Source: a bacterium (GTDB taxonomy: Bacteria; Krumholzibacteriota; Krumholzibacteriia; JACNKJ01). From it: a stretch of 64,000 nucleotides of DNA. Both the position numbers and the translations under genes were made by a program. The notes under the pieces were generated by a model. That model saw only the letters and a program-made list of their open reading frames with translations. It made no database searches and was not told the origin of the DNA. Shown one piece after another: positions 3,494 to 33,978 of this stretch. The stretch covers positions 2,079 through 66,078 of the forward strand of contig VGXI01000001.1 in assembly GCA_016873475.1 (NCBI GenBank). Reading direction: 5' to 3'. Numbering within the stretch: position 1 is the stretch's first letter; each line of letters starts with the position of its first letter.

Positions 3494-4941
3494 CCCTCGG
3501 CGATGCGCTCGGCATGGCTGCCGGCAACCTGCGCCGCCTGAAGTTGCGTGCGGGGCTGACGATGGCCGGTGTCGTCATCGCCGTGGGGGCGATGGTGGCG
3601 ATGCTCTCCTTCGGGGCGGGCAACCACCGCTTGGGGGCGAGTCAGGCCGAGCGCCTCGGCCTTCTGAACACGGTGCAGGTCACGCCGAGCAGCCCGCGGG
3701 ACAGCCTGCAATCGCCGCCCCTGGACGCGGCCGCCCTCGCCCGCCTCGCGGCCCTCCCCGGCGTGCGGCTTGCCTATCCGCTGGACGCCTTCACGCTCAC
3801 GCTCGCGCGGGGCGAGGGCGCCCTGCCGATCGAAGCGCAGGCGCTGCCGGAGGCCGCGCTCGCGACGCGCCTCTTCTCCCAGCTGCGCGCCGGCGAGGCC
3901 CTGCGGGGCGTGCCGGGCGAGGTCCTCGTCACGGACGCCTTCCTGAGCGCCCTCGACCTGCCCTTCGGCGAGGCCACCGCCGTGGTCGGGGACAGCCTCT
4001 TCGTGAGCCTCACCGTGGCGAGCGTGGACAGCGGCCTCGCGCAGGCGCTGGCGAGCGGGGAGGGCGGCCTCTTCGGCCTCGCCGCCCGGCTGCCTGCAGA
4101 CAGCCTCCGCGATTCCGCCGCGCGGCGCCGCCTGCTGAGCCGCGAGTTGGGCGCCGCGGCCGGCCGCTTCGTTGGCGGCTACCTGGCGGGGACTGTCCTG
4201 CGCGACACCCTCGTCGTGCGCGGCGTCCTGGAGGGCACGCAGTCCAACCGGCTGCGCGTGAAGCCGATCCTCCTGCAGCCAGCCGACGCCCTCCGCTTCA
4301 ACGCCGCCGGCCCGCCCGCCAATCCGCTCGCGCTCGTCACCGCGCTGCAGTCGGGCCAGCTCTTCGCCGCCAGGCCGGACACGGGACGCGGCTATCCCGC
4401 CGTCACCCTGGACCTCGATCCCTACGCGCCCTACGCGGTCGTGCGCGACAGCCTGCGCGCCATGGGCTACCAAGTCTTCAGCTACGCAGACCAGCTCGCC
4501 GACATCCGGCGCGCCTTCGTGATCTTCGACCTTGGGCTGCTCGCCATCGCGCTCGTCGCCCTCGTCACGGCGGCGCTCGGCGTCGTCAACACGCTGCTGA
4601 TGGCGATCAGCGAGCGGCGCCGCGAGATCGGCGTGCTCAAGGCCCTCGGCGCGGACGAGCGCGAGATTCGCTGGCTCTTCCTCGTCGAGTCCGGGCTGAT
4701 GGGCCTGATCGGCTCGATCGGCGGCATCCTGCTGGGCTGGCTGGTGGCGCGCGGCGCCTCGGCCGCGGCCAAGCTCATCATGCAGCGCCAGGGCCTGCCA
4801 CCGCTGGAGCTCTTCGCCACCCCGCTCTGGCTGGTCGCGGGCGCGCTCGCCTTTGGCCTCGCGATCAGCCTCGTTGCCGGCCTGATGCCCGCCGCCCGCG
4901 CCGCCCGCGTGGATGCGGTCGAGGCCCTGCGCGGCGAGTGA
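3490..4941 (+). CDS. ABC transporter permease, FtsX/MacB family
   Basis: N-terminal TM, large periplasmic domain, C-terminal FtsX-like 3-TM bundle (ISERRREIGVLKALGA...). 4-nt overlap with the ATPase gene. Confidence 0.8.
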   Translation: MTLGDALGMAAGNLRRLKLRAGLTMAGVVIAVGAMVAMLSFGAGNHRLGASQAERLGLLNTVQVTPSSPRDSLQSPPLDAAALARLAALPGVRLAYPLDAFTLTLARGEGALPIEAQALPEAALATRLFSQLRAGEALRGVPGEVLVTDAFLSALDLPFGEATAVVGDSLFVSLTVASVDSGLAQALASGEGGLFGLAARLPADSLRDSAARRRLLSRELGAAAGRFVGGYLAGTVLRDTLVVRGVLEGTQSNRLRVKPILLQPADALRFNAAGPPANPLALVTALQSGQLFAARPDTGRGYPAVTLDLDPYAPYAVVRDSLRAMGYQVFSYADQLADIRRAFVIFDLGLLAIALVALVTAALGVVNTLLMAISERRREIGVLKALGADEREIRWLFLVESGLMGLIGSIGGILLGWLVARGASAAAKLIMQRQGLPPLELFATPLWLVAGALAFGLAISLVAGLMPAARAARVDAVEALRGE

Positions 4942-4980
4942 CGGCGCCTGCCGGCCTGGATCCGGGCGAGCCGGCCTGCC

Positions 4981-6366
4981 CTAGCGCTGGCGCGGCGCCA
5001 CCAGCGCGTGCGTCAGTTCGCGCCGCGGCGAGGCGAGGCGCAGGCTCCGGTAGAAGTCCGCGCGCTCGAGCAGCTCGCCCGCGGCGATCAGTGCCAGCAT
5101 GAGCGGCGCCGCCGGCGGGCGGCCTGCGGCGAGCAGCGCTGCGGGCGCGAGGATCCCCAGCCCCACGCGGGCGAGCGCGAGGGGCGCCCAAGGCCGCGGC
5201 TCGCCGGCCCGGCGGGCGATCCAGAAGACGAGCTTGATCGCGAGCAGTGCGGCCAGCGGCCAGGCCCAGCCGCGCAGCGCCGCGGTGTAGACGAGCGCCG
5301 TCGGCAAGGCCTCGGCGCCATGCAGGCCGCCGAGGCCGCGCCGCGGCAGCGCGACGTCGTAGAGCCGGTCCATCGCGTACAGCGCGGCCAGTCCCGCGAG
5401 GGCCCCCGCGAGGCCGATCGCGTAGGGCGCCTCGGGCAGGAAGGCGAGCGGCAGCGCGCCGGCGAGGGCGACGAAGAGCGCGAAGGCGAGGATCTCGCGG
5501 CTGAGCCAGGAGTGCCCGCTGCCGGCCAGCGCGCGCCAGGCGCGCAGGGGGCGGCCGAGGTGCGCGGCGCTGAGCGCCATGGCCAGCAGGCCCCCGATCA
5601 GGATCGGCCACGGCCGATCGAGCCGGCAGGGCGGCAGCGTGTCCAGCTTGAGCGCCACCAGGAAGGGCGCCGCCCAGGTGAAGAGGACCAGCGGCCACTC
5701 CTCGCGCAGGGAGAGGCTGCGGCCGCCGTCCTCGGGTGGCCCGGGCGGCGCGGCGAAGGCGCCGCCGGGAGGCGGCGGCAGATCCGGGAGCGGGCCATGG
5801 GCGCCGGGGCGCAAGGGAATCAGACGCAGCCGCGGACCCGCCGCTGAGGGGGGGAAGCCGGTGAGAGCCGCCACGGCGCCGCCCCCTGCGATCTCGGCCA
5901 GCGGACCCGCCGCGAGGGCGCCCGTGGGGCAGCTCGTCACGCAGGCCGGAGCGCGACCCTCGCCGAGGCGTGGCGCGCAGAGCGTGCACTTGCCCATCGT
6001 GCGCGTTCTGGTGTCGAAGCGCGGCGCGTCGAAGGGGCAGGCCCAGCTGCAGTAGCGGCAGCCGATGCAGCGCTCCGCTTGGATGAGCAGGGCGCCCGTC
6101 GCCGCGTCGCGGCGGTAGGCGTTCGCCGGGCAGGCCGTCGCACAGGGCGACTCGTCGCAGTGATTGCAGGCCAACGAGAGATGGAAGGCCGGCAGGCCGG
6201 CGAGGCCTTCGGGGTTGAAGTCTTCCACGCGCCGCCAGGCGCCCTGCGCCGGCAGCTCGTTCTCGAGAATGCAGGCCAGGGCGCAGGCCTGGCAGCCCGT
6301 GCAGCGATTGAGGTCGAGGCGGAAGCCGGTCTGAGGGGCGCCAGGCGGGTGCGCGCGCGTGTTCAT
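4981..6366 (-). CDS. Fused 4x[4Fe-4S] ferredoxin (DmsB/PsrB/NrfC-like) and DmsC-like membrane anchor subunit
   Basis: Four Cys clusters (CTGCQACALAC; CNHCDESPCATACP; CIGCRYCSWACP; CTLCAPRLGEGRAPACVTSCP) followed by about 250 aa of multi-TM hydrophobic region. The true start MNTRAHPP overlaps the upstream stop (ATGA). The track's 720-aa version has a junk low-complexity N-terminus. Confidence 0.75.
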   Translation of the reverse strand: MNTRAHPPGAPQTGFRLDLNRCTGCQACALACILENELPAQGAWRRVEDFNPEGLAGLPAFHLSLACNHCDESPCATACPANAYRRDAATGALLIQAERCIGCRYCSWACPFDAPRFDTRTRTMGKCTLCAPRLGEGRAPACVTSCPTGALAAGPLAEIAGGGAVAALTGFPPSAAGPRLRLIPLRPGAHGPLPDLPPPPGGAFAAPPGPPEDGGRSLSLREEWPLVLFTWAAPFLVALKLDTLPPCRLDRPWPILIGGLLAMALSAAHLGRPLRAWRALAGSGHSWLSREILAFALFVALAGALPLAFLPEAPYAIGLAGALAGLAALYAMDRLYDVALPRRGLGGLHGAEALPTALVYTAALRGWAWPLAALLAIKLVFWIARRAGEPRPWAPLALARVGLGILAPAALLAAGRPPAAPLMLALIAAGELLERADFYRSLRLASPRRELTHALVAPRQR

Positions 6367-8429
6367 CGCCGAGCCCGCTCCACCTGCACGCGGTTCTCGT
6401 GGAAGGCGGCGCCGTGGCCGAGGTCCGTCTCGCGGCCGGCCGAGAGCAGGTTGACGCCGCCGCCCTCGGCGCGCTGCCAGCCGTTGTGGGCGAGCACGCT
6501 GCCGGCGAGCAGGCGCGCGTCCAGGTGCGCGGCGAGCGTCAGCGTGCCGCGGGCGTTGAAGACGCGCACCGCGTCGCCCTCCTCGATGCCGCGCGCGGCG
6601 GCGTCGGCGGGAGCGAGGTGCAGGCGCGGCGCCGGATCCAGGGCGCGGATCAGCGCGAGCTGCCCGAACTGCGAGTGGATGCGGTTCTTCGTGTTGGGCG
6701 TCATGAGGAGCAGCGGGTAGTCGCGTGCGGTTGCGGCGTCCGCGCCCGCCTCGGGACCGGCGAGATGCTGCGGCAGCGGATCGACGCCCCAGCGCCGCGC
6801 CGCCTCTTCCGAGTAGAGCTCGACGCGGCCGGAGGGCGTGGGGAAGCGGCGGTCCGCGAAGGCCACCTCGGCGAACTCGGGCGAGAGCACGGGTCCCGCC
6901 TTGAGATCCGCCAGCTCGAGACCGGGGAAGGGAGCGAGGCGGCGCGCGAGCCAGGCGTCCACGTCCGCTTCGTCCGGGATCTCGGCGTCGACCGCGGCCT
7001 GCGGCAGATCCAGGCGCGCGGCGAGTTGGCGGTAGATCCAGGTCTCGGGCCGCGCCTCGCCGGGCGGCGCGAGCAGCTTGGGCCGGTACTGGAGGTAGGG
7101 GTGCCAGTAGGCGCCGATCACGTCCGCCTGTTCGAGGAAGCACTTCGCGGGCAACACGAGGTCGGCCTCGCGCGCGGTGTCCGTGAGCGTCTCCTCGACG
7201 ACGACGCGGAAGTCGAGGGCGCGAAAGGCGGCCAGCACGCGGTTCGTGTCGGGGTTCTGGCTGAGCGGATTGCCGCGCTCCACCCAGGCGAAGCGCAGCG
7301 GCGGCTCGCGCTGCGCGAGCATGTCCTCGCCCAGGCGCGCGGTGGAGACGCTCACGCGCAGCGGCCCGTCTTCACCGCTCGGGGGCGGGTAGGCGGCCTC
7401 GGGATCCTTCGTCCCGAAGATGTTCGCCTGGAGATTGGCGAACTGCCAGCCGCCGCCGGCGAGGCCGAGGTTGCCGGTGATCGCCGGCAGGGCGATCAGC
7501 GCGCGCATCGCCTGGCCGCTGTGGGCATAGCGCTGCATGCCGAAGCCCGCGATCAGGGTCGCGGGCCGCCGCGCCATGAAGCGCTCGGCGAGGGCCGCGA
7601 TCTCGGCCTCGCCGAGGCCGCAGGTCCGCGCCGCGCGGGCGAGTGGCCACTCGGCGGCGCGCGCGGCGAAGGGCGCGAAGCCGAGCACGTGCCGGTCGAT
7701 GAACTCGCGATCGACGGCGCCGCGCTCGATGAGCCGATTCGCCACGGCGAGGGCGAGCGCGCCGTCCGTGCCAGGCCGCGGCCTGAGGCAGAGGTCGGCG
7801 CGGTCGGCGGTCTCCGTGCGCCGTGGGTCGATGACCACCAATTCGGCGCCCCGCTCGCGCGCCGCGGCGACGAAGCCCATCTGGTGTACGTTCGTCTCGG
7901 CGGCGTTCTTGCCCCACAGAACGATCAGCCGCGCGTTGACCAGGTCCCAGGGCGCGCTGTGCGTGTTGGCGCCGAGGGTCAAGCGGCTGGCCTCCAGGCC
8001 CGACATCCAGCAGAGGTCGCCGTAGGTCACCGTGGCGCCGCCGAAGAGGCGCCAGAAGGCAAGGCCGGCGCCGTTCAGCAAGCCCTTCGTGCCGCTGGCC
8101 GTGTAGTAGAGAAGGCTCCGCGGACCGGGCGAGCGGCGCAGCGCAGCGAGGCGCTCGGCCAGCTCGTCGAGGGCCGCCTCCCAGGCGATGGGGACGAAGC
8201 TGCCGTCGCGCTGGCGGCGCAGCGGCCGGCGCAGGCGATCGGGGGAGTGCACGCGCTCGACGTAGGCGAGGCCCTTGAGGCAGGGTCCCTCGGCCGTGGC
8301 GCGATTGGCGGCCAGCGGCTCGACGGCGCGCAAGCGGCCGTCCTCGATGCGCAGCGAGAGGCCGCAGGTGCTGTAGCAATTGCGCGGACAGGCGCTGATC
8401 GCGGCGGGCGCTGCGGGCGGCTCGGCCAC
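6363..8429 (-). CDS. Molybdopterin (Mo-bisPGD) oxidoreductase catalytic subunit, DMSO-reductase family, with no recognisable Tat signal
   Basis: N-terminal CX2CX3C...C FeS motif (CPRNCYSTCG...C) followed by molybdopterin oxidoreductase and MopB C-terminal domains. The likely start is a GTG at 8429 preceded by GAGGAGGA. The region upstream of it in the track ORF (to 8699) is Arg/Gly-rich junk, and no RRxFLK motif is present. Confidence 0.7.
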   Translation of the reverse strand: MAEPPAAPAAISACPRNCYSTCGLSLRIEDGRLRAVEPLAANRATAEGPCLKGLAYVERVHSPDRLRRPLRRQRDGSFVPIAWEAALDELAERLAALRRSPGPRSLLYYTASGTKGLLNGAGLAFWRLFGGATVTYGDLCWMSGLEASRLTLGANTHSAPWDLVNARLIVLWGKNAAETNVHQMGFVAAARERGAELVVIDPRRTETADRADLCLRPRPGTDGALALAVANRLIERGAVDREFIDRHVLGFAPFAARAAEWPLARAARTCGLGEAEIAALAERFMARRPATLIAGFGMQRYAHSGQAMRALIALPAITGNLGLAGGGWQFANLQANIFGTKDPEAAYPPPSGEDGPLRVSVSTARLGEDMLAQREPPLRFAWVERGNPLSQNPDTNRVLAAFRALDFRVVVEETLTDTAREADLVLPAKCFLEQADVIGAYWHPYLQYRPKLLAPPGEARPETWIYRQLAARLDLPQAAVDAEIPDEADVDAWLARRLAPFPGLELADLKAGPVLSPEFAEVAFADRRFPTPSGRVELYSEEAARRWGVDPLPQHLAGPEAGADAATARDYPLLLMTPNTKNRIHSQFGQLALIRALDPAPRLHLAPADAAARGIEEGDAVRVFNARGTLTLAAHLDARLLAGSVLAHNGWQRAEGGGVNLLSAGRETDLGHGAAFHENRVQVERARR

Positions 8430-8587
8430 GGGGTCCTCCTCGAGGTCGGGCGGGGGTGCCGGGCAGTATGCCCAGCCGCCGCGCCCCCCGCAATGCCGGC
8501 TTCGCCGTTGCCTGTGGCGGCCGCGGGCCCTACACTGGAGCGGCCCTGCGGAATCGGTCTCGGATTCCCGATCCCCATGGAGTGAGA

Positions 8588-10633
8588 ATGCGGGCGCTGT
8601 CGCTGTTCGTCCCGCGCTTGCTGTTGCTCTGCCTGCTTCCGCTCCTCGCGAGCGTCGCGGTGCCCGCGCTGGCCGACGCGGCCAAGACCCCCACGCCACC
8701 CGACAGCCTGCCCGGTGTCTATGCGCTGCCGTCCGTGGTGGTGACCGCCGATCCGCTCGCCCCGGCGCCGGCGCTCGGCGAGACGCGCCTGGGGGGGCCG
8801 TCCCTGCGCGAGAGGAGCGAGCCCGATGTCGCGGGCCTCGCGCCCCTGCTGCCCGCGCTGCGCCTCGGCCTCAACTCGCGCGGTGAATCGCAATTCATGC
8901 TGCGCGGCGCTTCGGAGCGCCACCTGCTGGTCAGCCAGGACGGCATTCCCCTGAACCTGGCCTGGGACGAGCGCAGCGACCTCTCCCTGCAGCCGGCCGA
9001 GGCCGTGGGAGCGGTGCGCGTCCGTCGCGGCGTGCGCAGCCTCTTGCAGGGCGCCGGCGCCCTGGCCGGCAGCCTCGAGCTGCACTCGCGGGCGGCGCCG
9101 GCGGCGGGCGGCGAGAGCGCGCTCGACCTCGGCGTCGGCGAAGCCGGCCACCTTCGCGCGGCCCTGCTGCACGGGCGCCGCCTCGGCGCCTGGGGCCTGC
9201 TCGCGAGCCTCGCCCGCACTCGCCGCGACGGCTGGCTCCGACCCGCCGGCTACCACAGCGCCTACAACGAGGCGCAGGGCCGCCTGCGCCAGAACAGCGA
9301 CCTCGCGCGCGCGAGCGCATTCGTCACGCTCGATAGGCCGCTGCCCCGCGAGGGCCGCCTCGCGCTGCACCTGGGGGGCAGCCGCGTCGAGAAGGGAGTG
9401 CCACCGGAAACGCACAGCGAGGACGCGCGCTTCTGGCGTTACCCGGACAGCCAGCGCTGGCTCGGCGGCTTCGGCCTCGATCAGCCGCTGGACGCGGGGG
9501 GCGCCTGGCGGCTCGGCCTCGTCGCCGCCCTCGACGCTGCCGACACGGACATCCTCGACTACGAAGACGCCAGCTACAGCGGGCCCGCGGCGGCGATCGG
9601 CCGCGAGCTCGACGAAGACCGCACGCTGCACCTGCGCCTGCTCCTCGAGCGCCGTTTCGCGGGCGGTCGCCTCAGTCTGGCCAGTGAGCTGCGCAACGCG
9701 CGCCACAAGGAGCTGCTCCCCGGGGAAACGGACTGGCAGCGCTATGCGCAGCGCCGCATCGCGGAGACACTGGAACTGGAGTTCTCGCCGCGTCCGGCCT
9801 GGACTCTGCGCGCCGGCACGGCTTGGCTGCGCGCGTCGACGCCCGCGAGCGGCGACAAGCCGGCCCGCGATGCCGATCAGATGAGCGACTGGCTCCTGTC
9901 CCTGGGCCGCCGGCTCGATGGTGCACAGTCGCTCGAGCTGTCGCTCTCGCGCCGCGGGCGCTTCCCCGGCCTGCGCGAGCTCTACTCGGGCGCGCTGGGG
10001 AAGTTCGTCCCCAATCCGGATCTCGCGCCCGAGGCACAGACCCTCACCGAGCTGGCCTACCGCCGCGAGGGCGAGCGGCTGCGCCTGGACTGCTCGCTCT
10101 TCGCGGCGCGGCTCGCCGGCGCCATCGAGCGCATCGTCGTGAACAGCGAGACGGGCGCCTTTCAGCGCGTGAACCTCGACGCGCTGCGCAGCCTGGGGGC
10201 CGAGGCCGAGCTGGCCCTGCGCGCAGGCGCCGGAGTCGACGTGAGCATCCACTGGCTGCAGCTCGCGGCGCGCCGCCGCGTGGATGGCGACTACGAGGGC
10301 CAGGTCGAGGACCGCCCGAACTGCATCGGCGGTCTGCGCCTGGGCTGGTCTGCTCCTCGCGGCTGGCGCCTGGGCGCGGAAGCCGGCCTGCTCGGCCCGC
10401 GCTGGAGCGCCGACGCCACCGATGCGGCGGACGGCCTGCGCCGCCTGCCGGCGCAGGGCCGCCTCGCGCTGCTCGCCGCCTGGCGGCGCTACCTCGGCCG
10501 GGCCGGCCTCGAGGACCTCGAGCTGCGCCTGCGCCTGGACAATGCGCTCGACAGCATCGTCGAGTCGCAGACCGGCCTGGTCGAGCCGGGGCGCAGCCTT
10601 CAGGTCGGCCTGCGCCTGGGCCTGGGCGTCTGA
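8588..10633 (+). CDS. TonB-dependent receptor family outer-membrane protein (plug + beta-barrel); putative cobalamin/BtuB-like receptor by context
   Basis: Signal peptide MRALSLFVPRLLLLCLLPLLASVAVPALA. Plug-domain motifs (VVVTADPL...ETRLGG...NSRGESQFMLRGASERHLLVSQDGIPLN). Start refined to M45 of the track ORF with GGAG RBS. The C-terminus lacks the usual terminal aromatic residue, so the family assignment is moderate. Confidence 0.6.
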   Translation: MRALSLFVPRLLLLCLLPLLASVAVPALADAAKTPTPPDSLPGVYALPSVVVTADPLAPAPALGETRLGGPSLRERSEPDVAGLAPLLPALRLGLNSRGESQFMLRGASERHLLVSQDGIPLNLAWDERSDLSLQPAEAVGAVRVRRGVRSLLQGAGALAGSLELHSRAAPAAGGESALDLGVGEAGHLRAALLHGRRLGAWGLLASLARTRRDGWLRPAGYHSAYNEAQGRLRQNSDLARASAFVTLDRPLPREGRLALHLGGSRVEKGVPPETHSEDARFWRYPDSQRWLGGFGLDQPLDAGGAWRLGLVAALDAADTDILDYEDASYSGPAAAIGRELDEDRTLHLRLLLERRFAGGRLSLASELRNARHKELLPGETDWQRYAQRRIAETLELEFSPRPAWTLRAGTAWLRASTPASGDKPARDADQMSDWLLSLGRRLDGAQSLELSLSRRGRFPGLRELYSGALGKFVPNPDLAPEAQTLTELAYRREGERLRLDCSLFAARLAGAIERIVVNSETGAFQRVNLDALRSLGAEAELALRAGAGVDVSIHWLQLAARRRVDGDYEGQVEDRPNCIGGLRLGWSAPRGWRLGAEAGLLGPRWSADATDAADGLRRLPAQGRLALLAAWRRYLGRAGLEDLELRLRLDNALDSIVESQTGLVEPGRSLQVGLRLGLGV

Positions 10634-10652
10634 GCTTCCAAGAAGGCAGACC

Positions 10653-10681
10653 TTGACCGGCGGGTATCTGTACTGTACGCT
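10653..10681 (+). promoter_or_regulatory. Promoter/operator candidate upstream of the CarH-like gene: TTGACC followed by tandem TGTAC half-sites (tatcTGTACTGTACgct); approximate coordinates
   Basis: AT-richer island about 70 nt upstream of the regulator start. GTAC-containing repeats of the same kind recur downstream of the gene (CTGTACAG). Confidence 0.3.
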
Positions 10682-10746
10682 ACCTGAACAATTCCTCTCC
10701 CGAATCCCCGGGACCTGGCAGGGCGAGGCAGGCCGGACGCTGAGCG

Positions 10747-11706
10747 ATGGACGAAGCCGAAGCCCGACATCCAATCGCCGTGGTCATGCGGCGCACGCGC
10801 CTGAGCGCGGAGCTGCTGCGGGCCTGGGAGCGGCGCTACGGCGCCGTCCGGCCGGGCCGCGGCGCGACCGGCCGGCGCCTCTACTCCGACCTCGACATCG
10901 AGCGCCTGCGCCTGCTCAAGCAGCTCACCGAAGGGGGGCGGCGCATCGGCGAGGTGGCGGCGCTGCCGCTCGCCGCGCTGCAGGGCCTCGAACGCGAGGA
11001 CATCGCCGCCCGGCTGGAGAGCGCCGCGCTCGCGCCGGCCCGGCCGGCCGGCCCGGGGCGGCCGGCGCCGGGCGAGGAGTGTGCGGCGCTGCTCGCCCGC
11101 GCCCTGGCGGCCGTGGAAGACCTCGATCCCCGCGCCCTGCAGGCCGTGCTCGGCGAGGCGAGCGTCGCGCTCAGTCCCGCGCGCCTGCGCGAGGAGTTCC
11201 TCGTGCCCTTGATGGTGCTCATCGGGCAGCGCTGGCACGAGGGCAGCCTGCGCGTGGCGCACGAGCACCTCGCCACGGCCGTCGTGCAGGGCTTCGTGAC
11301 CGAACTCCAGCGGCGGCCACCCCTCTCCGAGACGGCGCCGCGCCTGGTGGCGGCCACGCTCACCGGCAGTCGCCACGAGCTCGGCGTTCTCCTGGCCTGC
11401 GCGGCCGCGGCCGAGGAGGGCTGGGACGTGGCCTACCTGGGCCCCGGGCTGCCGGCCGAGGAGATCGCGGCCGCCGCCCGCCAGCGCCGGGCCCAGGCCG
11501 TGGCGCTGGGTCTCACCCTCATCGACGACCGGGCCTTCGTTCAGAGGGAGCTGGGCCGCCTGCGCGAGCTGATCGGCCCCGGCGTCCAGCTCTACATCGG
11601 CGGCGCGGCCGCCTCCCGCCTCGGCGATGCCCTGGGGCCCAGCGGGGCGGTGGCGGTCCCGACCCTCGCGGAATTCAGCCGCCTCCTCCGTCTCAAGTCA
11701 AACTAG
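10747..11706 (+). CDS. CarH/LitR-like MerR-family regulator with C-terminal cobalamin-binding domain (putative light/B12-responsive)
   Basis: N-terminal MerR HTH (AVVMRRTRLSAELLRAWERRYG). Wx9EH motif (WHEGSLRVAHEH). B12-binding xHxxG (SRHELG) plus GWDVAYLG. Confidence 0.75.
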   Translation: MDEAEARHPIAVVMRRTRLSAELLRAWERRYGAVRPGRGATGRRLYSDLDIERLRLLKQLTEGGRRIGEVAALPLAALQGLEREDIAARLESAALAPARPAGPGRPAPGEECAALLARALAAVEDLDPRALQAVLGEASVALSPARLREEFLVPLMVLIGQRWHEGSLRVAHEHLATAVVQGFVTELQRRPPLSETAPRLVAATLTGSRHELGVLLACAAAAEEGWDVAYLGPGLPAEEIAAAARQRRAQAVALGLTLIDDRAFVQRELGRLRELIGPGVQLYIGGAAASRLGDALGPSGAVAVPTLAEFSRLLRLKSN

Positions 11707-11736
11707 AAGAATAGTTTACGGCCCTGGTCAGGGCGC

Positions 11737-11772
11737 CGGCCTGCCCGGCGTTGCCACTGCTTATCAAACGTA
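11737..11772 (+). terminator. GC hairpin (cgccggc-ctgc-ccggcg) followed by a T-richer stretch downstream of the CarH-like gene; approximate coordinates
   Basis: Perfect 6-7 bp GC stem with a 4-5 nt loop, about 30 nt after the stop, followed by ttgccactgcttatc. Confidence 0.35.
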
Positions 11773-11817
11773 CAGATTTTTCCCTGACGACCTTAGGCTC
11801 TTCGTCTAGATTTTGTC

Positions 11818-11825
11818 CTGTACAG
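11818..11825 (+). promoter_or_regulatory. Perfect palindrome CTGTACAG in an AT-rich intergenic region (a second GTACAGA copy about 45 nt upstream); candidate CarH-type operator/promoter for the downstream gene
   Basis: Region 11707-11893 is unusually AT-rich for this genome. The palindrome and the related aacGTACAGAttt repeat resemble the TGTAC repeats upstream of the CarH-like gene. Confidence 0.3.
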
Positions 11826-11893
11826 AGCGGCAGCAAGCAGCACCGGCGGACGCCGGAGAGCTTCTCGACCGGACCAAACGACGGAGGCCAACG

Positions 11894-12122
11894 ATGACGA
11901 AGCACTTCCTCTTCGGGCTGACTGGCCCTTCCCTCGCGCTGATCGCCACCCCGCAGGCCCAGCCGACTGCAGGGCTCGCCGAGACCCTGAGCGGGCGCGG
12001 CCCCTTCACGCTCTTCGCGCCCACGGACGAGGCCTTCGCCAAGCGGCCCGCCGGCACGGTCGAGGCCCTGCTCAAGGATCCCGAGGCCCTGCGCGCCATC
12101 CTGCTGCACCCCGTCGTCGCTG
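11894..12122 (+). pseudogene. Fasciclin (FAS1) domain gene fragment, truncated (only about 75 aa of an about 135-aa FAS1 domain, then the frame is lost)
   Basis: [42 protein letters not shown] matches FAS1 up to the H-box. GGAGG RBS. After about 12120 the frame continues as Arg/Gly junk, and the coding signal moves to another frame. Confidence 0.5.
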
Positions 12123-12500
12123 GCACCGCTCGCGGAGGCCTTCTCGGGCAGCAGCGCCGTCCTGCTGCGCGCCCTGCACGGCTCGCCCGATGCCCCGGCC
12201 GTGGACATCGGCACGGTGAGCGGCGGCACCTTCACCGCGGTGCCCGGTCTCACCGATCTGGCCTTCGGGGACGCCTCTGCCAGCTCGGGCCTGGCCTTGC
12301 CGGCCGGTCCGATCGTGCTCGGCATCGCCGCGGCCAACGCCCCCGATCCCGTGGCCACCTTCAGCGTGGCGCCGGCTTCCGGACAGCGCCTGTTCGCGCT
12401 GGCCCTCGGCTCGCTCGCGGGCCAAGGCGAGGACTTCCGCCTGGTGCAGGTCGACACCGCGCCTGCGACCTGGTCGGCAACCTCCGTCATGCCGGGCTGA
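12117..12500 (+). pseudogene. DUF4397-like domain fragment (one repeat) in a different frame from the preceding fasciclin fragment; likely frameshifted or decayed gene
   Basis: [24 protein letters not shown]... matches the DUF4397 [11 protein letters not shown] signature. There is no start codon or RBS of its own. Confidence 0.45.
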
Positions 12501-12656
12501 AGGCCGACGCGATCGCCAGTACTGGGCGCTTCAATCGGCAAGGGCAGGGGGCGGGCGCCGCGAGCTGCCCGCCCCTCATTTCGCCGGCGTTTCCCGCCTG
12601 GGCACTGCCACTGCTCTGTGCTAGGCTGCCCGCTTTCCACCGCGGAGGCGAGCCGC

Positions 12657-14063
12657 ATGAACGGCGAGATCGACATCAGCTTCTGGGGCGCGGCGCGGGA
12701 CGTCACCGGCAGCCGCCACCTGCTCGGCCTGGGGGCCGAGAGCATCCTCTTCGACTGCGGCCTCGTGCAGGGCAAGCGCGCCGAGGCCGACCGGGCCAAC
12801 CGCGAGCTGCCCTTCAAGGCGAGCGCGGTGAAGGCCGTCCTGCTCAGCCACGCTCACATGGACCACGGCGGCAACCTGCCCAGCCTCGTCGCCCGCGGCT
12901 TCAGGGGCAAGATCCACTGCACGCGGGCCACGGCCGACCTGCTGGCCGTGATGCTCAGGGACAGCGCCCACATCCAGGCGCGCGACGCCGAGTGGCTGAA
13001 CCGCCGGCGCCGGCGCGGCGAGGCGCCCGTCGAGCCGCTCTACGACCTGGCCGACGTCGAGCGCACGCTGGGTCTGATCGAGCCGCATCCCTACCGGAAG
13101 TCCTTCAGCGTGCGGCCGGGGGTGACCGCGACCTTCCGCGACGCGGGGCACATCCTGGGCAGCGCCTTCGTCGAGACGGTGATCGAACGCGGGGGCGGCC
13201 AGCGCCTGCGCCTCACCTTCTCGGGCGACCTGGGCCGGCGCTTCCTGCCCATCCTCAAGGATCCCGAGCAGCCCGAGGCCGCCGACGTGCTGATCCTGGA
13301 GAGCACCTACGGCGACCGCTTCCACGCCGACATCCGCGGCGCCGAGGAGCAGCTCGGCGCGATCGTCGGTCGCACCGCCGCGCGGGGCGGCAAGGTGATC
13401 ATCCCCGCCTTCAGCGTGGGCCGCAGCCAGGAGCTCATCTACGAGCTGCACCGCCTGATCACGGCGGGGGAGATCCCCGACCTGCCGGTCTACATCGACA
13501 GCCCGCTCACGGCGAAGGCGAGCCAGGTTTTCGCCGCCCACGAGGAGTGCTTCGACGCCGAGACCTGGGCGATCCTGTCGGCGGGCGGCGATCCCTTCGG
13601 CTTCGAGCGCATGCGCTACGTGGAGAGCGTCGAGGAGTCCAAGCGCCTGAACAGCCACCGCGGGCCCTGCGTGATCATCTCCGCCTCGGGCATGTGCGAA
13701 GCCGGCCGCGTGCTGCACCACCTCGCCAACAGCGTCGAGGACCCGCGCAACACGGTGCTCATCGTCGGCTTCCAGGCGGGAAACACGCTGGGGCGGCGGC
13801 TCGAGGAGGGCGCCAAGCGCGTGCGCATCCTCGGCGAGGAGTACAAGGTGGCCGCCGAGGTCGTCGCCCTGCATGCCTACAGCGCCCACGCGGACCGGCT
13901 CGACCTGCTGCGCTTCTACGAGAACATGCGGGAGCGGCCGGGGCGCATCTTCCTGGTCCACGGCGAGGAGCGCCAGTCGGAGGCCCTGGCCGCGGCCCTG
14001 CGCGAGAAGGGCGCGGCCGCGGTGGAGGTGCCCGCCCTCGGCGATCGCTTCCGGCTCGAGTAA
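12657..14063 (+). CDS. MBL-fold metallo-hydrolase of the beta-CASP family (RNase J / RNA-metabolising type)
   Basis: HAHMDHGG motif. Beta-CASP motifs and a C-terminal RNA-specificity region. Start refined to [12 protein letters not shown] with GGAGG RBS. Confidence 0.8.
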
Positions 14064-14143
14064 GGCACTTCCACTGCGCGCGCCGCCCGAAGTACCCGGC
14101 TCGAGGAGAGCGCCCGAATCCCGGCGGACCAACAAGCAGGCTC

Positions 14144-14254
14144 TGGGACGGCTGCACGGATGCGGGCGGGGCTGCCGCGGCAGGTGTCTACTTCGCCCGG
14201 GTGCGCTATACTGATGGGACGGTAGCCTCGCGGAAGTTCACCCTCCTGCGATAA
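14144..14254 (+). pseudogene. Orphan 3' remnant of a T9SS/FlgD-Ig-type C-terminal sorting domain (…[37 protein letters not shown])
   Basis: Only the last roughly 35 aa of the conserved C-terminal sorting domain remain, with no upstream body in frame. It lies between the RNase J-like gene and the next gene. Confidence 0.45.
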
Positions 14255-15826: not shown

Positions 15827-18325
15827 TCAGCGCAATAGCGTCAGGCGCCGGCTCTCCACTTTGCCCTCGCTGATCAAGCGGGCGAAGTAGACCCCGCTCG
15901 GCAGCTCGCGACCGCTGTCGCTGCGGCCGTCCCAGACGAGGCGCTGCGGACCGGCCGGCAGGCGTCCCGCCTGGAGATGCCGCAGCGCGCGCCCCGCCGC
16001 ATCGACGATGACGAGCCGCGCCTCGCCCGCCGCGGGCAGCGTGAAGCTGAGCGTCGTCTGCGGGTTGAAGGGGTTCGGGTAGTTCGCCAGCCCGAAGCCG
16101 GCTGCGGGAGCCTCGGCCACCGCCGTCAGGCCGTCCGTCGCGAAGTCCCAGATGCCCCGCCCGTAGGTGCCGAAGCGCATGACGCCGATGGCCGGCACGG
16201 CCTCCACGCTCCAGAAGAGCGTCAGCGGCGCGCCGGCGCCGATGTACTGCCAGCTCGCGCCGCCGGCCGGCAGCAGGTAGGGGCCGGCCTCCGTGGCCGC
16301 GTAGAGCGTCTCGCTGGCCGGGCTCTCGGCGGCGAGCATGTAGACCAGCGTGGCCGGCAGGCCCTCGCCCGCGGGCGTCCAGTTCAGGCCGCCGTCGTCG
16401 CTGCGGTAGACGGCGGGGCCGCTGTAGCCGCTGCCGCCCAGCCAGGCGCGCTGGGTCGAGAGCGGCGAGAAGGCGATCCCCGTGCCGTGGAAGTAGTGCG
16501 AGGATGGCCCCTGATCGTCGGAGTGCTGCCAGCTGGCGCCGCGGTCGTGGCTGTACCAGATCTCGCCGGTGTCCGTGACGGCGAGCCGGCGGTCCAGATC
16601 CAGCGGCGAGATCGCGAAGGCGCTGAGATAGCTGCCGCCGTACGCCGTGAAGTTCTGCGCGTGATTGGTATAGCTGACGTTGTTGCCTCCGAGCCAGCGG
16701 CCGCGGTAGAGGTACTGCCCGCAGAAGTAGTAGGCCTGCAGGTCCTCGGGATCGGCGACGATGGGCGGCAGCCACAGGTGGCTCGAGCCGGCGGGGAAGT
16801 CGAGGTAGTGGAGCCCGGGCGCGGTCTCGCCCTGCTGCACCAGCGTGAAGCCCGGGTAGACCGAGAAGACGATGCTGTGCGTCCCGTTGCCGGAGGTGAG
16901 GTGGCCGTAGTCGCCGCTGATGAGCTGGGCGAAGTCGGCGATGGGGTCGCGCAGGCCGTCCGCCCACTGGTAGCCCTGATCCTGGCTGCCGGCCGCGATG
17001 CGGTAGGGATCGTTCACGCTGGTGAGGACGTCGTAGTACTGACTGACGCCGAGCCCGTGGAGCGAGAGGTTGGTCACCGAGGCCATGCGGTCGTCGCTGC
17101 GGTAGATGCCGCCGTCCGTGCAGGGGAACCAGCGCTCGCCGAGGCCGGGGATGTTGAACACCTCCAGGCCCGGGTTGTCGGCATGGAGCTTGTGCAAGGG
17201 GTTGCCGTAGTACTCGCCCCAGCCGTTGACCTTCGTGAAGCTGCCGCCGCCGTTCGTGCTCCGCCAGGCCTCGACACCGGCGTAGACGACGATGTCGGGG
17301 TTAGTGATCGAGCAGTTGAGCGTCTCCCACCAGTCGTCCAGCTCGGCGCGGTAGGCCCAGTTGAGACCGCCGTCGGTGCTGCGCCAGAGCTCCCAGTTGT
17401 TGGCAATCCGCGCCGCCGCGTAGAAGGTCGGCGCGCCGGCCTCCGAACCCGCGAGGATCACCTTGCCCGGGTAGCTGGGCAAGTTGCCCAGGGGCGTCCA
17501 GGTGGCGCCCTGGTTCGTGCTCCGGTAGAGCGTGCGGCTGACCATCAGGTAGAGGTCGCTGCCGTCGAGGCGGTCGAGCCAGAAGTCGGCGACGCTGTTG
17601 TTCGTGTGGTTGATCAGCGTGTAGCTGCGGCCGGCATTCTCCGAGCGGTAGAGCTCTGTGCCCTGGCCCTGCGAAGCGAGCAGCAGGTAGACGCGATTCG
17701 CGTTGCCCGGATCGCGCATCACGCGCGTGGCGAGCTGGGGCACGGCCGGCAGACCGGCGGGGAGCTGCCAGGTCGCGCCCTGATCCACGCTGTAGCGGAC
17801 GACCGCGCTCGTGGAGAGCACGGTGATCACCTCGGGGTTCGTCCCGGCAACGGCGACGCCGCCGCGCACGCCGCCGTAGAGATTGTCCGAGAGGGGGCGC
17901 CAGCCGTTGCCCCAGAGGTCGCCCTTCCAGAGGCCGCCCAGGTCCGAGCCGGCGTAGAGGCTGTCGCCGGCCACCGAGATGGCCGCGCAGTGCATGCGGC
18001 CCGCCTGGTTGCGGCTGCCGATTTCTGTCCAGGTCGCCACCCGTCGGCCGGCGGCCGCGTGCCGGGCCTCGCGAGCGCGGCCGTTGGAGGCTTCGATCGT
18101 CCGCCAGTCCGTGCCGGGCGCGGCGCGGTGCATCTGCTCCATCCAGGCGCGGCGGCCCTTGCGGTTCAGGCGCTCGGCGTCCTCGTCGAGGCGGTGCTCG
18201 GTGGGCATCGGCAGCGCGCGCGAGCCGCTCGGCCACAGGCGCAGCTGCCAGGCGAAGGCGAGCGCAAGGGCGGCGCTCAGGGCGAGGGCGAAGCGCGGCA
18301 ACGCGGTCGGGAGGCGGCGCGGCAC
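15827..18325 (-). CDS. Secreted BNR/Asp-box (sortilin/sialidase-like) repeat glycosidase-like protein with T9SS-type C-terminal sorting domain
   Basis: Multiple S.D.G.TW Asp-box repeats. C-terminal NYPNPFNPQTTLSFTL...GVYFARL...RRLTLLR. Start refined to a GTG at 18325 (RBS GAAGGAG), which gives a signal peptide VPRRLPTALPRFALALSAALALAFA. Confidence 0.65.
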   Translation of the reverse strand: MPRRLPTALPRFALALSAALALAFAWQLRLWPSGSRALPMPTEHRLDEDAERLNRKGRRAWMEQMHRAAPGTDWRTIEASNGRAREARHAAAGRRVATWTEIGSRNQAGRMHCAAISVAGDSLYAGSDLGGLWKGDLWGNGWRPLSDNLYGGVRGGVAVAGTNPEVITVLSTSAVVRYSVDQGATWQLPAGLPAVPQLATRVMRDPGNANRVYLLLASQGQGTELYRSENAGRSYTLINHTNNSVADFWLDRLDGSDLYLMVSRTLYRSTNQGATWTPLGNLPSYPGKVILAGSEAGAPTFYAAARIANNWELWRSTDGGLNWAYRAELDDWWETLNCSITNPDIVVYAGVEAWRSTNGGGSFTKVNGWGEYYGNPLHKLHADNPGLEVFNIPGLGERWFPCTDGGIYRSDDRMASVTNLSLHGLGVSQYYDVLTSVNDPYRIAAGSQDQGYQWADGLRDPIADFAQLISGDYGHLTSGNGTHSIVFSVYPGFTLVQQGETAPGLHYLDFPAGSSHLWLPPIVADPEDLQAYYFCGQYLYRGRWLGGNNVSYTNHAQNFTAYGGSYLSAFAISPLDLDRRLAVTDTGEIWYSHDRGASWQHSDDQGPSSHYFHGTGIAFSPLSTQRAWLGGSGYSGPAVYRSDDGGLNWTPAGEGLPATLVYMLAAESPASETLYAATEAGPYLLPAGGASWQYIGAGAPLTLFWSVEAVPAIGVMRFGTYGRGIWDFATDGLTAVAEAPAAGFGLANYPNPFNPQTTLSFTLPAAGEARLVIVDAAGRALRHLQAGRLPAGPQRLVWDGRSDSGRELPSGVYFARLISEGKVESRRLTLLR

Positions 18326-18479
18326 GGCGGGCTCCTTCGTCGGTGGTCGGCAGACCCGACCAGTATAGCAGAAGGCGACCTGGGCTTGCGGGGCGAGCCT
18401 AGGCCCGGCGCATTGTCTTGCCAAGCCGAATCCATTGGGCTAAGCCTAGGCGCGTTGCCAACCTGCCCGAGGTGGCCCG

Positions 18480-27163: not shown

Positions 27164-29017
27164 TTATTTCAGGAGCAGCAGCTTCTGCCGGCCCAGCTCG
27201 CGGCCGTCCAGGCGCAGGCGGGCGAAGTAGACACCGCTCGCCGCGCGCTGGCCCTGGGCGTCCCGGCCGTCCCAGAGGACGAAGCCCGGCCCGGCCGGCA
27301 GCTCCTCCGCGAGCAAGGTCTGCAGGACGCGGCCCTGGGCATCGAGGATGGTCAGCTCGGCGCGGCCCGCCGCCGCCAGCTCGTAGCGCAGGCGCGTGCT
27401 TGGATTGAAGGGATTGGGGTGCGGCGCGAAGAGGCGGCCGGCGCCGGCCGCCGGCGCGACGGGCGCGTCCGACCAGCCGAAGCCGGCTTCCAGCAGCACC
27501 TGCCCGAGGGTCGGCCCGTCGGTCATCGGCGCCGTGGGCGGCATCGGATCCTGGCCGACACGAACGTACTCCTCGATGCTGTCGACGGCGATGTGTCCCC
27601 AGGCCACGGTGCTCAGATCGGCGATGACGAGAAAGACCGTCTGCCCCGCGAGGCTGGCCAGGTCCCAGAGCCGCGGCGTGATCTGGTGGCTGTCGTTGCC
27701 CGTCGCCCAGAGCAGGATGCGCTGATCGCTCGCGCGCACCAGGGCGACGAAGGTGAGCCCCGGCTGGTTGCCGCCGCCGACGCGGAGGCTCAGGCGATCG
27801 CCCGTCACCGTGAAGTCGTCGCTGCGGATCAGGCCCGTCGGCACGTTGCCCTGGATGCGGCCCGGCGGGTAGATCTCCGGGTTCGGGAAGAACTCGTAGG
27901 TGGCGATGTAGCTGTTGCCCGCCATCCCGGTGGGCACGCCGCTGCGCTCGTAGGGGTTGTCGCCCCAGGTCGGCTGGTAGTTGAACGCGGTGCCGAAGAC
28001 GTTCGTCCAGTTCTCGGGCAACCCGTCGTTGAAGCTCACCGAGGGGTCGCCGCCTGGTCCGTCGAAAGCGATCTCGCCGAAGTGGTAGTAATAGCGCGTG
28101 CCGTCGCGCAGGCCGAGGCCGCGGTGCAGGCTCCACAGCTCGGGCTCGCCGGGGATGGTCGTGATCTCGCAGGCGTGCCCCTCGTCGATGTAGGTGCGGT
28201 TCTCCTTCGACCAGCCGCCGAGGAAGGTGGGGCTCGCGATGTGGCTGATCTGTTGCTGGCCCCCCTCGGTGAAGAACAGGTGGTAGTTGCCGCCCCGCTT
28301 CACGAGCTGCACGCTCTCGAGCACGTTCTGGCTGTCGTTGACGAAGAAGGCGCCGCGGTCCATCCAGGGGCCGAGGTTGAAGCTGAGGGCGTAGCTGATG
28401 GCGCCCAGGGTGTCCGGCGCCGCCGAGGCCGTATTCAGCAGGTACCAGCTGCTGCTGCCGTCCTCGTGGAAGATCTCGGGGTCGCGGCAGTTCGACCACT
28501 GCCCCGACGACCAGATCGCCCAGCTCCCCGGACGATAGATCGGGTTGTTCGGGTAGCGATACCAGTTGTAGAGGTTGTAGCTCGAGGCGAGGCCGGTCTG
28601 CTGGGTGACGGTGTAGTTGGCACCCGTGTAGTACATCAGCCAGTCGTTGCTGTTGGGATCATCGATGATCTTCGGCGCCCAGATGAACTCCGACTCCCAG
28701 GCCGGCGGATTCGGAATGTCGATCGAGAGGATGCTGTCCTGCCGCGCCCAGTGGCGCAGGTCGGGGCTGGTGATGTGGCCGAACCACTGCTCCTTGCGCA
28801 GGTAGTGGCCGCTAGGCGGCAGGCTCTGGATGTAGAAGACGTGGTAGAGCCCGTTGTGCTTGACCACCGCGTGGTCCTTGCACTGCAGGCCCATCGTCTC
28901 GAGGAAGTAGGGCTGCTCGAAGTCGGTGACGTGCAGCGCCCCTGCCGGCGCGGCCCTGAGCGTCAGAGCCGCAAGTCCCAGCAGAAGGGCCTGCGCGACC
29001 ATGGGGAGTCGTGGCAT
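27164..29017 (-). CDS. Secreted GH32/43-like five-bladed beta-propeller + 'WGDNPY' module protein with T9SS-type C-terminal sorting domain (paralog 2 of 3)
   Basis: Signal peptide MPRLPMVAQALLLGLAALTLRAAPAGA. Motifs YHVFYI, IWAPKII, NCRDPEIF, YHLFFTE, QPTWGDNPY, GNSYIATYE. C-terminal PNPFNPSTRLRYEL...GVYFARLRLDG...QKLLLLK. Confidence 0.7.
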   Translation of the reverse strand: MPRLPMVAQALLLGLAALTLRAAPAGALHVTDFEQPYFLETMGLQCKDHAVVKHNGLYHVFYIQSLPPSGHYLRKEQWFGHITSPDLRHWARQDSILSIDIPNPPAWESEFIWAPKIIDDPNSNDWLMYYTGANYTVTQQTGLASSYNLYNWYRYPNNPIYRPGSWAIWSSGQWSNCRDPEIFHEDGSSSWYLLNTASAAPDTLGAISYALSFNLGPWMDRGAFFVNDSQNVLESVQLVKRGGNYHLFFTEGGQQQISHIASPTFLGGWSKENRTYIDEGHACEITTIPGEPELWSLHRGLGLRDGTRYYYHFGEIAFDGPGGDPSVSFNDGLPENWTNVFGTAFNYQPTWGDNPYERSGVPTGMAGNSYIATYEFFPNPEIYPPGRIQGNVPTGLIRSDDFTVTGDRLSLRVGGGNQPGLTFVALVRASDQRILLWATGNDSHQITPRLWDLASLAGQTVFLVIADLSTVAWGHIAVDSIEEYVRVGQDPMPPTAPMTDGPTLGQVLLEAGFGWSDAPVAPAAGAGRLFAPHPNPFNPSTRLRYELAAAGRAELTILDAQGRVLQTLLAEELPAGPGFVLWDGRDAQGQRAASGVYFARLRLDGRELGRQKLLLLK

Positions 29018-33833: not shown

Positions 33834-33903
33834 GCCTGGCTCCTCTCGAGTCCGCTGGTCCCCGGAGGCGACGCCGCAGCGCAGCACCGGCACTCGCCCG
33901 GAT

Positions 33904-33933
33904 TTGACCTCGCGCGAATCCGTCTGTTATAAT
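33904..33933 (+). promoter_or_regulatory. Near-consensus sigma70 promoter: TTGACC - 18 nt - TATAAT (with TGT just upstream of the -10)
   Basis: gatTTGACCtcgcgcgaatccgtctgtTATAATctcggcc, about 45 nt upstream of the ATG at 33979. AT-rich island. Confidence 0.55.
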
Positions 33934-33978
33934 CTCGGCCAATTGACACGCGCTCACAACCCCACGCAGGACTGCGGC

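Follow-up and report, generated by a model that had tools for sequence, protein, structure and literature searches.

The CarH/LitR family consists of vitamin-B12-based light-sensing repressors, among which CarH of Thermus thermophilus (PDB: 3WHP, 5C8A, 5C8D-F) and CarH of Bacillus megaterium have a three-part architecture, control carotenoid genes, and use operators of three or four tandem 11-bp direct repeats. CarH homologues are defined by two motifs, Wx9EH and ExHx2Gx41SxV/Tx22-27GG, and the Thermus repeat, nAnnTnnACAn, contains the half-site TnnACA (PMC8156234). The design of CarH operators has been called 'remarkably plastic', and it includes stepwise binding of dimeric CarH proteins to sites that resemble palindromes (PMC9304148). 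The dimeric proteins Cystobacter CarH and M. xanthus CarA use (pseudo)palindromic sites. The class II LitR proteins PplR1 and PmlR2 of Pseudomonas lack the Rossmann B12-binding domain and need a LOV partner. Their footprinted sites have the form T(G/A)TACA-N12-TGTA(C/T)A, overlap the -35 element and the leader, and occur twice per promoter (PMC9758184). Here we describe a carH/litR-type gene in a 64-kb stretch of bacterial DNA that was analysed at its full length (the window). We propose, with a probability of roughly 0.7, that its product is a class I CarH/LitR photoreceptor that represses its own promoter and a downstream fasciclin/DUF4397 operon, and that the TonB-dependent receptor gene next to it is a neighbour and not a partner. 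The proposal draws on the domain architecture of the regulator, its ligand residues, conserved motifs that overlap both promoters, and the linkage of carH to fasciclin genes across distant lineages.

10747–11706, plus strand: carH/litR-type gene, 319 amino acids (aa), with a MerR helix-turn-helix (HTH), a four-helix bundle as well as a Rossmann B12-binding domain (Pfam, NCBIfam and PDB matches).

The regulator has the same three-part architecture as the Thermus and Bacillus megaterium proteins. The profile MerR_1 (PF13411) matches residues 10–71 (E=9e-13, Pfam), which align to the DNA-binding domain of Thermus CarH, whereas the four-helix bundle (B12-binding_2, PF02607) and the Rossmann domain (B12-binding, PF02310) occupy residues 116–187 and 199–290, both above the gathering scores. 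The best PDB matches are T. thermophilus CarH structures (3WHP and 5C8D, E=7e-24, HMMER), to which the regulator is approximately 37% identical over 244 aligned residues. In the HMMER alignment, the segment W163-HEGSLRVAH-E173-H174 superposes on the intact Thermus Wx9EH motif, and the segment SRH210ELG aligns with gERHEIG, so that His210 takes the position of the lower axial ligand. The histidine beside the tryptophan is kept as W163-H164; in Thermus CarH, this residue becomes the upper ligand after photolysis. In the second, classic B12 motif, two positions deviate (below), and the spacing is canonical, with His210, Gly213, x41, Thr257, x27 and the glycine pair 285–286. The MerR HTH with Wx9EH and HxxG signatures described in an earlier, sequence-only reading of this DNA is thus present, and the B12-binding histidine and tryptophan residues on which that reading had staked its assignment survive alignment to T. 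thermophilus CarH. By the published two-motif criterion, the product of the gene would essentially be a class I CarH/LitR protein. The top NCBIfam family is CarH (NF052513), with 105.9 bits, which is below the equivalog cut-off of 400, and the listed homologues come from metagenome-assembled genomes (MAGs) of Krumholzibacteria, Gemmatimonadetes, Latescibacteria and Acidobacteriota. Judged by these matches, the regulator belongs to the known CarH/LitR family as an ordinary member. Class II LitR identity was considered and rejected, given the Rossmann B12-binding domain and the operator spacer of N10 and not N12.

The intergenic regions on both sides of the regulator gene were footprinted with five orthologous loci, namely the window and the loci L005, L006 (identical to L001), L007 and L025, the regulators of which are 69–80% identical. 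The following elements were delineated.

10653–10681, plus strand: putative carH promoter, with -35 element TTGACC (10653–10658), 17-nt spacer and -10 element TACGCT (10676–10681), from sequence and alignment.
10669–10690, plus strand: putative CarH operator upstream of carH, TGTACT-N10-TGAACA, with the consensus TGTMCW-N10-WGNACA, from the orthologue alignment.
11769–11824, plus strand: putative fasciclin/DUF4397 promoter and operator region with four TnnACA-like hexamers, H1–H4, from the five-orthologue alignment.
11769–11774, plus strand: H1, CGTACA, 15 bp upstream of the -35 element.
11784–11789, plus strand: H2, CTGACG, coinciding with the -35 element, which is TTGACA in the orthologues.
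11803–11808, plus strand: H3, CGTCTA, overlapping the -10 element.
11807–11812, plus strand: putative -10 element of the fasciclin promoter, TAGATT.
11819–11824, plus strand: H4, TGTACA, near the expected transcription start.

Upstream of carH, the sequence-only reading had pointed out TTGACC followed by TGTACTGTAC. Both are found, the former as the putative -35 element and the latter at 10669–10678, inside the operator. The arrangement TTGACC-N17-TAC(G/T)nT is common to the window, L005 and L006, and L007 and L025 have TTGCAT or TTGTTT, N17 and TACAAT over the same operator. Of the two operator hexamers, the left one falls within the spacer and -10 element and the right one follows just downstream. 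The only block conserved upstream of carH in the five loci is TGTMCW-GKAC-N5-C-WGNACA at 10669–10690, which contains 12 invariant columns out of 22, compared to 4 out of 88 in the rest of the intergenic region (Fisher p=2e-7). The pattern TGTMC-N12-GNACA has no other exact match in the 64 kb; matches with one mismatch occur in the window at chance level (11 found, 8 expected). The degenerate copies reveal the orientation: right hexamers have the form nGnACA and left hexamers its reverse complement, TGTnCn; therefore, each 22-bp unit is a divergent palindrome-like pair.

The region after the regulator gene is relatively AT-rich, with a GC content of 0.575 at 11700–11899 compared to approximately 0.74 in the flanks, and, as the same reading had described, contains GTACAG (11770–11775) and the palindrome CTGTACAG (11818–11825). 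In the orthologues, the fasciclin gene is preceded by TTGACA-N17-TA(G/C/A)nnT. The spacing of H1–H4 is 15/19/16 bp in L006, L007 and L025, and 15/19/15 bp in L005 because of a 1-bp deletion. The operator region has 27 invariant columns out of 56, compared to 26 out of 131 elsewhere upstream of the fasciclin gene (five loci, p=1e-4), and in the five orthologues no part of either intergenic region is conserved more strongly than its operator block. Two hexamer pairs, H1–H2 and H3–H4, seem to be present in the fasciclin promoter, where they span 56 bp. The two operators share the 10-mer TGTMCTGTAC, of which the 64 kb contain exactly two copies; these, at 10669 and 11814, are on the plus strand and flank the regulator gene, and the fasciclin-side copy is TGTCCTGTAC (11814–11823). 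None of 100 dinucleotide-preserving shuffles of the window contained any match to this 10-mer, and matches with one mismatch are located at 38387 and 50174. Short words are not significant alone in the window: TGTACA occurs three times compared to 1.1 expected, and CTGTACAG once compared to 0.25 expected. Taken across the five loci, the alignments support the view that the TGTAC repeats behave as conserved candidate operators overlapping sigma-70-like -35 and -10 elements at two promoters.

The candidate operators resemble those of Thermus and Bacillus CarH in overlapping a putative sigma-70-type promoter and in containing TnnACA, and differ from their tandem direct repeats in that divergent hexamers are set at a distance of 16 bp. 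Pseudomonas class II LitR sites contain the same hexamer, with N12 in place of the N10 found here. The pairs H1–H2 and H3–H4 of the fasciclin promoter resemble the sites of the Cystobacter and M. xanthus proteins, and their 56-bp span is similar to the approximately 55-bp operator of M. xanthus CarH (PMC8156234). As a difference from these systems, no CarS antirepressor or carotenoid operon lies near carH. Since the plasticity of CarH operators is documented, the arrangement of hexamer pairs separated by N10 is a variant and no surprise. The window thus provides a phylogenetically footprinted candidate operator with a TGTACA-type half-site and a different spacing, which fits the reported plasticity.

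In L005, L006, L007 and L025, the order carH-fasciclin-DUF4397 is intact. The gene after carH encodes a fasciclin-domain protein of 176–190 aa with a signal peptide, and is followed by a gene for a DUF4397 protein of 468–473 aa with a lipoprotein-type signal (LAGC) and then by a beta-CASP RNase-like gene. The window contains remnants of the first two genes.

11894–12133, plus strand: fasciclin-domain gene remnant, residues 1–121 of the 176-aa orthologue, then out of frame (tblastn with the L005 protein).
12117–12500, plus strand: DUF4397 gene remnant, residues 342–467 of the 468-aa orthologue, its frame differing from that of the fasciclin remnant (tblastn).

The Pfam Fasciclin match in the window remnant covers only profile positions 12–67 of 123, and tblastn with the L005 and L006 DUF4397 proteins aligned 12117–12494 with 75% identity. 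The distance from the fasciclin start codon (11894) to the beta-CASP gene is only approximately 720 bp in the window, from which, together with the tblastn fragments, it follows that the operon has lost about 1.2 kb and that what is left is frameshifted. Compared with all four orthologues, the first base has changed from T to C in three of the four hexamers, at 11769, 11784 and 11803, among them the -35 element (CTGACG, where the orthologues have TTGACA). These changes fit a promoter that decays together with its broken operon. Unless the deletion results from the assembly or is a population variant, the target operon appears to be a decaying pseudogene in this genome. The circuit has probably been reduced here to autoregulation, unless there are targets outside the window.

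Two further elements of the operon are shared with the orthologues. The 5' untranslated region (UTR) of the fasciclin gene contains a small GC hairpin, CCGGCG-GA-CGCCGG (11844–11858), upstream of the conserved ribosome-binding site GACGGAGG. The hairpin is kept in L005, L006, L007 and L025, and the orthologue alignment contains only wobble changes and no compensatory pairs in it. After the DUF4397 remnant and before the beta-CASP gene, positions 12514–12580 hold the conserved inverted repeat CGCCAGTACTGGGCG, followed by the GC-rich hairpin GGGGCGGGC...GCCCGCCCC and by TCATTT. This repeat and hairpin, which are also present in L005–L007, look like a terminator and account for weak Rfam small-RNA matches at 12542–12599.

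The pairing of carH with a fasciclin gene extends beyond the five loci. Of 17 CarH-like loci for which downstream sequence was available, 15 have it; the use of peptide patterns of the window regulator to find the loci makes this a biased sample. Two of these loci (L011 and L012) have the order carH-fasciclin-SRPBCC. The CarH-like loci of approximately 30% identity from two collection scans, which derive from Nannocystis MAGs and metagenome contigs and were counted as eight (L002–L004, L017–L019 and L021–L023, with L002 and L018 apparently near-identical), all carry a fasciclin gene in the same orientation immediately after the regulator gene. The fasciclin proteins of these Nannocystis-type loci are 51–57% identical to that of L005, compared to approximately 30% for the regulators, and are therefore more conserved than the regulators. 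Their upstream motif is different, TATAGAGGGTTTGCATAGGGTT, and their regulators have a non-canonical EEHVVP at the histidine position. The metagenome scan for close orthologues returned only the relatives of approximately 30% identity, which were of no help for the operator.

We tentatively suggest, at somewhat under even odds, that a CarH-like photoreceptor and a secreted fasciclin protein form a conserved two-gene module in at least three distant lineages (the uncultured high-GC lineage of the window, Krumholzibacteria-like MAGs, and Nannocystis of the Myxococcota), with a surface or envelope protein and not carotenoids as the primary light-controlled output, which in the window would be read through palindrome-like hexamers spaced by 16 bp. 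No description of CarH or LitR together with fasciclin was found in the literature searched. The R. sphaeroides fasciclin gene RSP_1409 belongs to the RpoE regulon. It is listed among the genes induced by photooxidative stress (PMC7074977), and both it and the fasciclin genes mpk70 and mpk83 of M. kansasii (PMC9861118) are listed as induced by singlet oxygen or light. Secreted fasciclin-domain proteins under photo-oxidative induction are thus described; control of them by a CarH-type repressor is not reported. The recurrent linkage of carH and fasciclin genes across lineages is the one lead worth following, and the presence of a dedicated photoreceptor beside fasciclin genes in several phyla makes the role of fasciclin testable.

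One relative, with 52% identity, has a DUF378-carH-photolyase arrangement (L013). Upstream of it, positions 4470–4638 of that locus contain two AATATGGACAA repeats with a 12-bp period, which fit the Thermus nAnnTnnACAn, as well as a TTGACA -35 element with the inverted repeat TGTCC-N9-GGACA around it. This upstream region may be a Thermus-like direct-repeat operator.

The mechanism that we propose for the window is modelled on the behaviour of Thermus and Bacillus CarH (PMC8156234). By analogy, the regulator would bind adenosylcobalamin (AdoCbl) and respond to light, CarH would be the protein that binds the TGTAC motifs, and repression would be achieved by promoter occlusion. In the dark, the AdoCbl-bound regulator would oligomerise, and the oligomer would occupy the TGTAC operators over the -35 and -10 elements of two sigma-70-type promoters and block RNA polymerase. 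The targets would be its own promoter (10669–10690) and the fasciclin/DUF4397 promoter (hexamers at 11769–11824). Ultraviolet, blue or green light would cause photolysis of the Co-C bond and dissociation of the oligomer, which would free both promoters. carH and the fasciclin operon would then be transcribed, and carH would be negatively autoregulated.

Several observations weigh against this mechanism. Unlike in Thermus and Bacillus CarH, the classic B12 motif of the regulator deviates twice, with Ser208 in place of Glu and Gly255 in place of Ser in SxT. GxT is also present in the four closest orthologous loci checked, the first position of the motif is Gln in most of 120 homologues, and both motifs are present in a relaxed form in 116 of these 120 listed homologues. 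A strict sigma-70 scan of 8300–12700 reported no promoter, and no terminator either, so both promoters are read from conservation. At the fasciclin promoter, the right half-site can be read in two overlapping registers and is therefore ambiguous. No tandem 11-bp array of the Thermus or Bacillus type was found; there are only single matches to nAnnTnnACAn, such as TACCTGAACAA at 10681. The scans for further operator targets covered only the 64-kb window. Finally, since the operon is disrupted, its regulation is immaterial in the window unless the deletion is an artefact of assembly or of the population.

The gene directly upstream of the regulator is the only other real gene within 8588–11893, and both are on the plus strand.

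8588–10633, plus strand: TonB-dependent receptor gene, 681 aa, with a signal peptide, a plug and a 22-strand barrel (Pfam PF07715 Plug and PF00593 TonB_dep_Rec_b-barrel).

The plug and barrel that had been described for this protein are matched by the two Pfam profiles, and the receptor contains a TonB-box-like sequence, PSVVVTA. The receptor had also been called BtuB-like and thought to couple B12 import to the sensor. It could in that case supply the chromophore, or be repressed by AdoCbl-bound CarH in the place of a riboswitch. We consider such coupling unlikely, as five independent lines of evidence (riboswitch searches, family scores, predicted fold, leader motifs and gene context) speak against it. 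The adjacency of receptor and carH is kept in the five orthologous loci, and the only PDB sequence matches of the receptor are to E. coli BtuB, weak and confined to the plug (E=3e-4). E. coli BtuB is also the top Foldseek match (E=8e-33) of the AlphaFold2 model (pLDDT 90), and the highest TM-score, 0.78, was obtained with BtuB1 of B. thetaiotaomicron. The model shares a small 22-strand barrel and a plug with E. coli BtuB and Bacteroides BtuB1-3 (TMq 0.73-0.78). However, the receptor is only 14–18% identical to these proteins, and the margin of BtuB over OprC, YncD and PqqU is negligible: these three (E=1e-28 to 1e-29) and Bacteroides BtuB1/3 follow E. coli BtuB with equal or higher TM-scores and 14–17% identity. 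The predicted fold says that the receptor is a small 22-strand transporter, without pointing to a substrate. The BtuB equivalog models score far below their cut-offs (TIGR01779, 27.6 bits compared to 599.7; NF007926, 23.7 bits compared to 836), and siderophore and haem subfamily models outscore them, also below cut-offs. The label BtuB-like is thus not borne out. An OprC-type copper site was rejected informally, as a 48-sequence alignment contains no invariant Cys or Met.

Most btuB genes have a cobalamin riboswitch in their leader. The scan of the receptor leader with RF00174 that the sequence-only reading had suggested gave no match, as no riboswitch of this clan was detected in 7500–13000 even at E<=10, and none reached the gathering level in seven related loci (L005–L007 and L010–L013). 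The TGTAC motif is absent from the receptor leader in the window (8433–8587) and from the receptor leaders of L005, L006 and L025, and the promoter-like TAGACT/TACACT-GGAG sequence before the receptor, which is kept in the window, L007 and L025, does not contain it. The L007 receptor gene is preceded by a perfect palindrome, GCGGATTGTACACGTGTACAATCCGC, which consists of two TGTACA hexamers 2 bp apart (TGTACA-CG-TGTACA) and lies between a MacB/FtsX gene and the receptor gene (1690–1720 of that locus). This palindrome favours coupling; it may serve as an additional CarH site or as a terminator, and the close relative L025 lacks it.

Gene context also argues against a coupled importer. Receptor homologues with 51–54% identity occur in the same backbone (a ygaP-like gene, the receptor gene, an unrelated DUF5128-like gene, and genes for beta-CASP and a Sortilin/FlgD_ig protein) without carH, fasciclin or DUF4397. 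The adjacency of receptor and carH therefore looks like a module insertion, and the simplest reading of these contexts is that a carH-fasciclin-DUF4397 module was inserted beside a resident receptor gene. Receptor homologues with 41–44% identity are found in unrelated gene contexts, and CarH homologues at approximately 50% identity have no receptor nearby. The genes btuF, btuCD and cob were not found among the approximately 35 annotated open reading frames (ORFs) of the window, and no genes for B12 transport or salvage lie beside the receptor homologues. The receptor looks like a bystander of the CarH regulon and not a coupled B12 importer, and a B12 photoreceptor wired to a B12 importer is not supported. 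From the light- and B12-responsive regulon originally proposed, the CarH-type regulator and the conserved candidate operators stand, the membership of the receptor probably falls, and the likely partner is the downstream fasciclin/DUF4397 operon, which lies outside the interval 8588–11893 considered then. A YgaP-like (DUF2892) membrane protein gene of 58–63 aa precedes the receptor gene in L005 (3549–3740), L006 (3614–3790) and the P0131 contig; it is missing from 8433–8587 of the window, where the receptor gene is 155 bp from a divergent molybdopterin oxidoreductase gene.

It is quite improbable that the operators are real and the regulator reads another signal, as a sensor of B12 availability or redox state, or as a B12-independent repressor of the CarA or class II–V LitR kind. 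B12-independent relatives exist in the CarH/LitR family (PMC8156234, PMC9758184), the second motif is non-canonical at Ser208 and Gly255, and photolyase, carotenoid and B12-related genes were not found among the approximately 30 other ORFs of the window. Against this, the regulator contains both the intact Wx9EH motif and the His-on motif, by which CarH is distinguished from CarA in the literature (PMC8156234, PMC9304148). The pair W163-H164, which includes the ligand that forms after photolysis in Thermus, is kept, the B12 module is complete with both subdomains, unlike in class II LitR, and one member of the family adjoins a photolyase.

That the TGTAC blocks are bound by another regulator, or are promoter or leader elements unrelated to CarH, is very improbable: they do overlap core promoter elements that would be conserved anyway, and other regulators use TGTACA-type palindromes, but the shared 10-mer is confined, within the 64 kb, to the two promoters on either side of carH, the conserved positions reach beyond the -35 and -10 hexamers, the half-site fits the TnnACA of characterised CarH/LitR DNA-binding domains (PMC8156234, PMC9758184), and an operator at the gene's own promoter, and thus autoregulation, is typical of the family.

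As a putative class I CarH/LitR repressor, the regulator adds to the family an uncultured lineage of very high GC content, whose proteins have their nearest named relatives in Krumholzibacteria and Eisenbacteria MAGs. The predicted output genes, fasciclin and DUF4397, differ from the carotenoid genes controlled by Thermus and Bacillus CarH.

The GC content of the window is approximately 73–75%, and its high value results in many long spurious ORFs over real genes on both strands of 4865–14254, such as 8075–10774 on the minus strand (899 aa) and 11813–14254 on the plus strand (813 aa). The real reading frames of this region were picked out by a GC content at third codon positions (GC3) >0.85. 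Elsewhere in the window, large secreted proteins with a C-terminal FlgD_ig-type sorting domain are encoded at 15827–18424, 27164–29017, 33817–35838 and 61666–63969, and some also have GH32/GH43-like or BNR/Sortilin-like domains. Secreted proteins of the FlgD_ig type are typical of Eisenbacteria- and Krumholzibacteria-like lineages, the source of the nearest named homologues.

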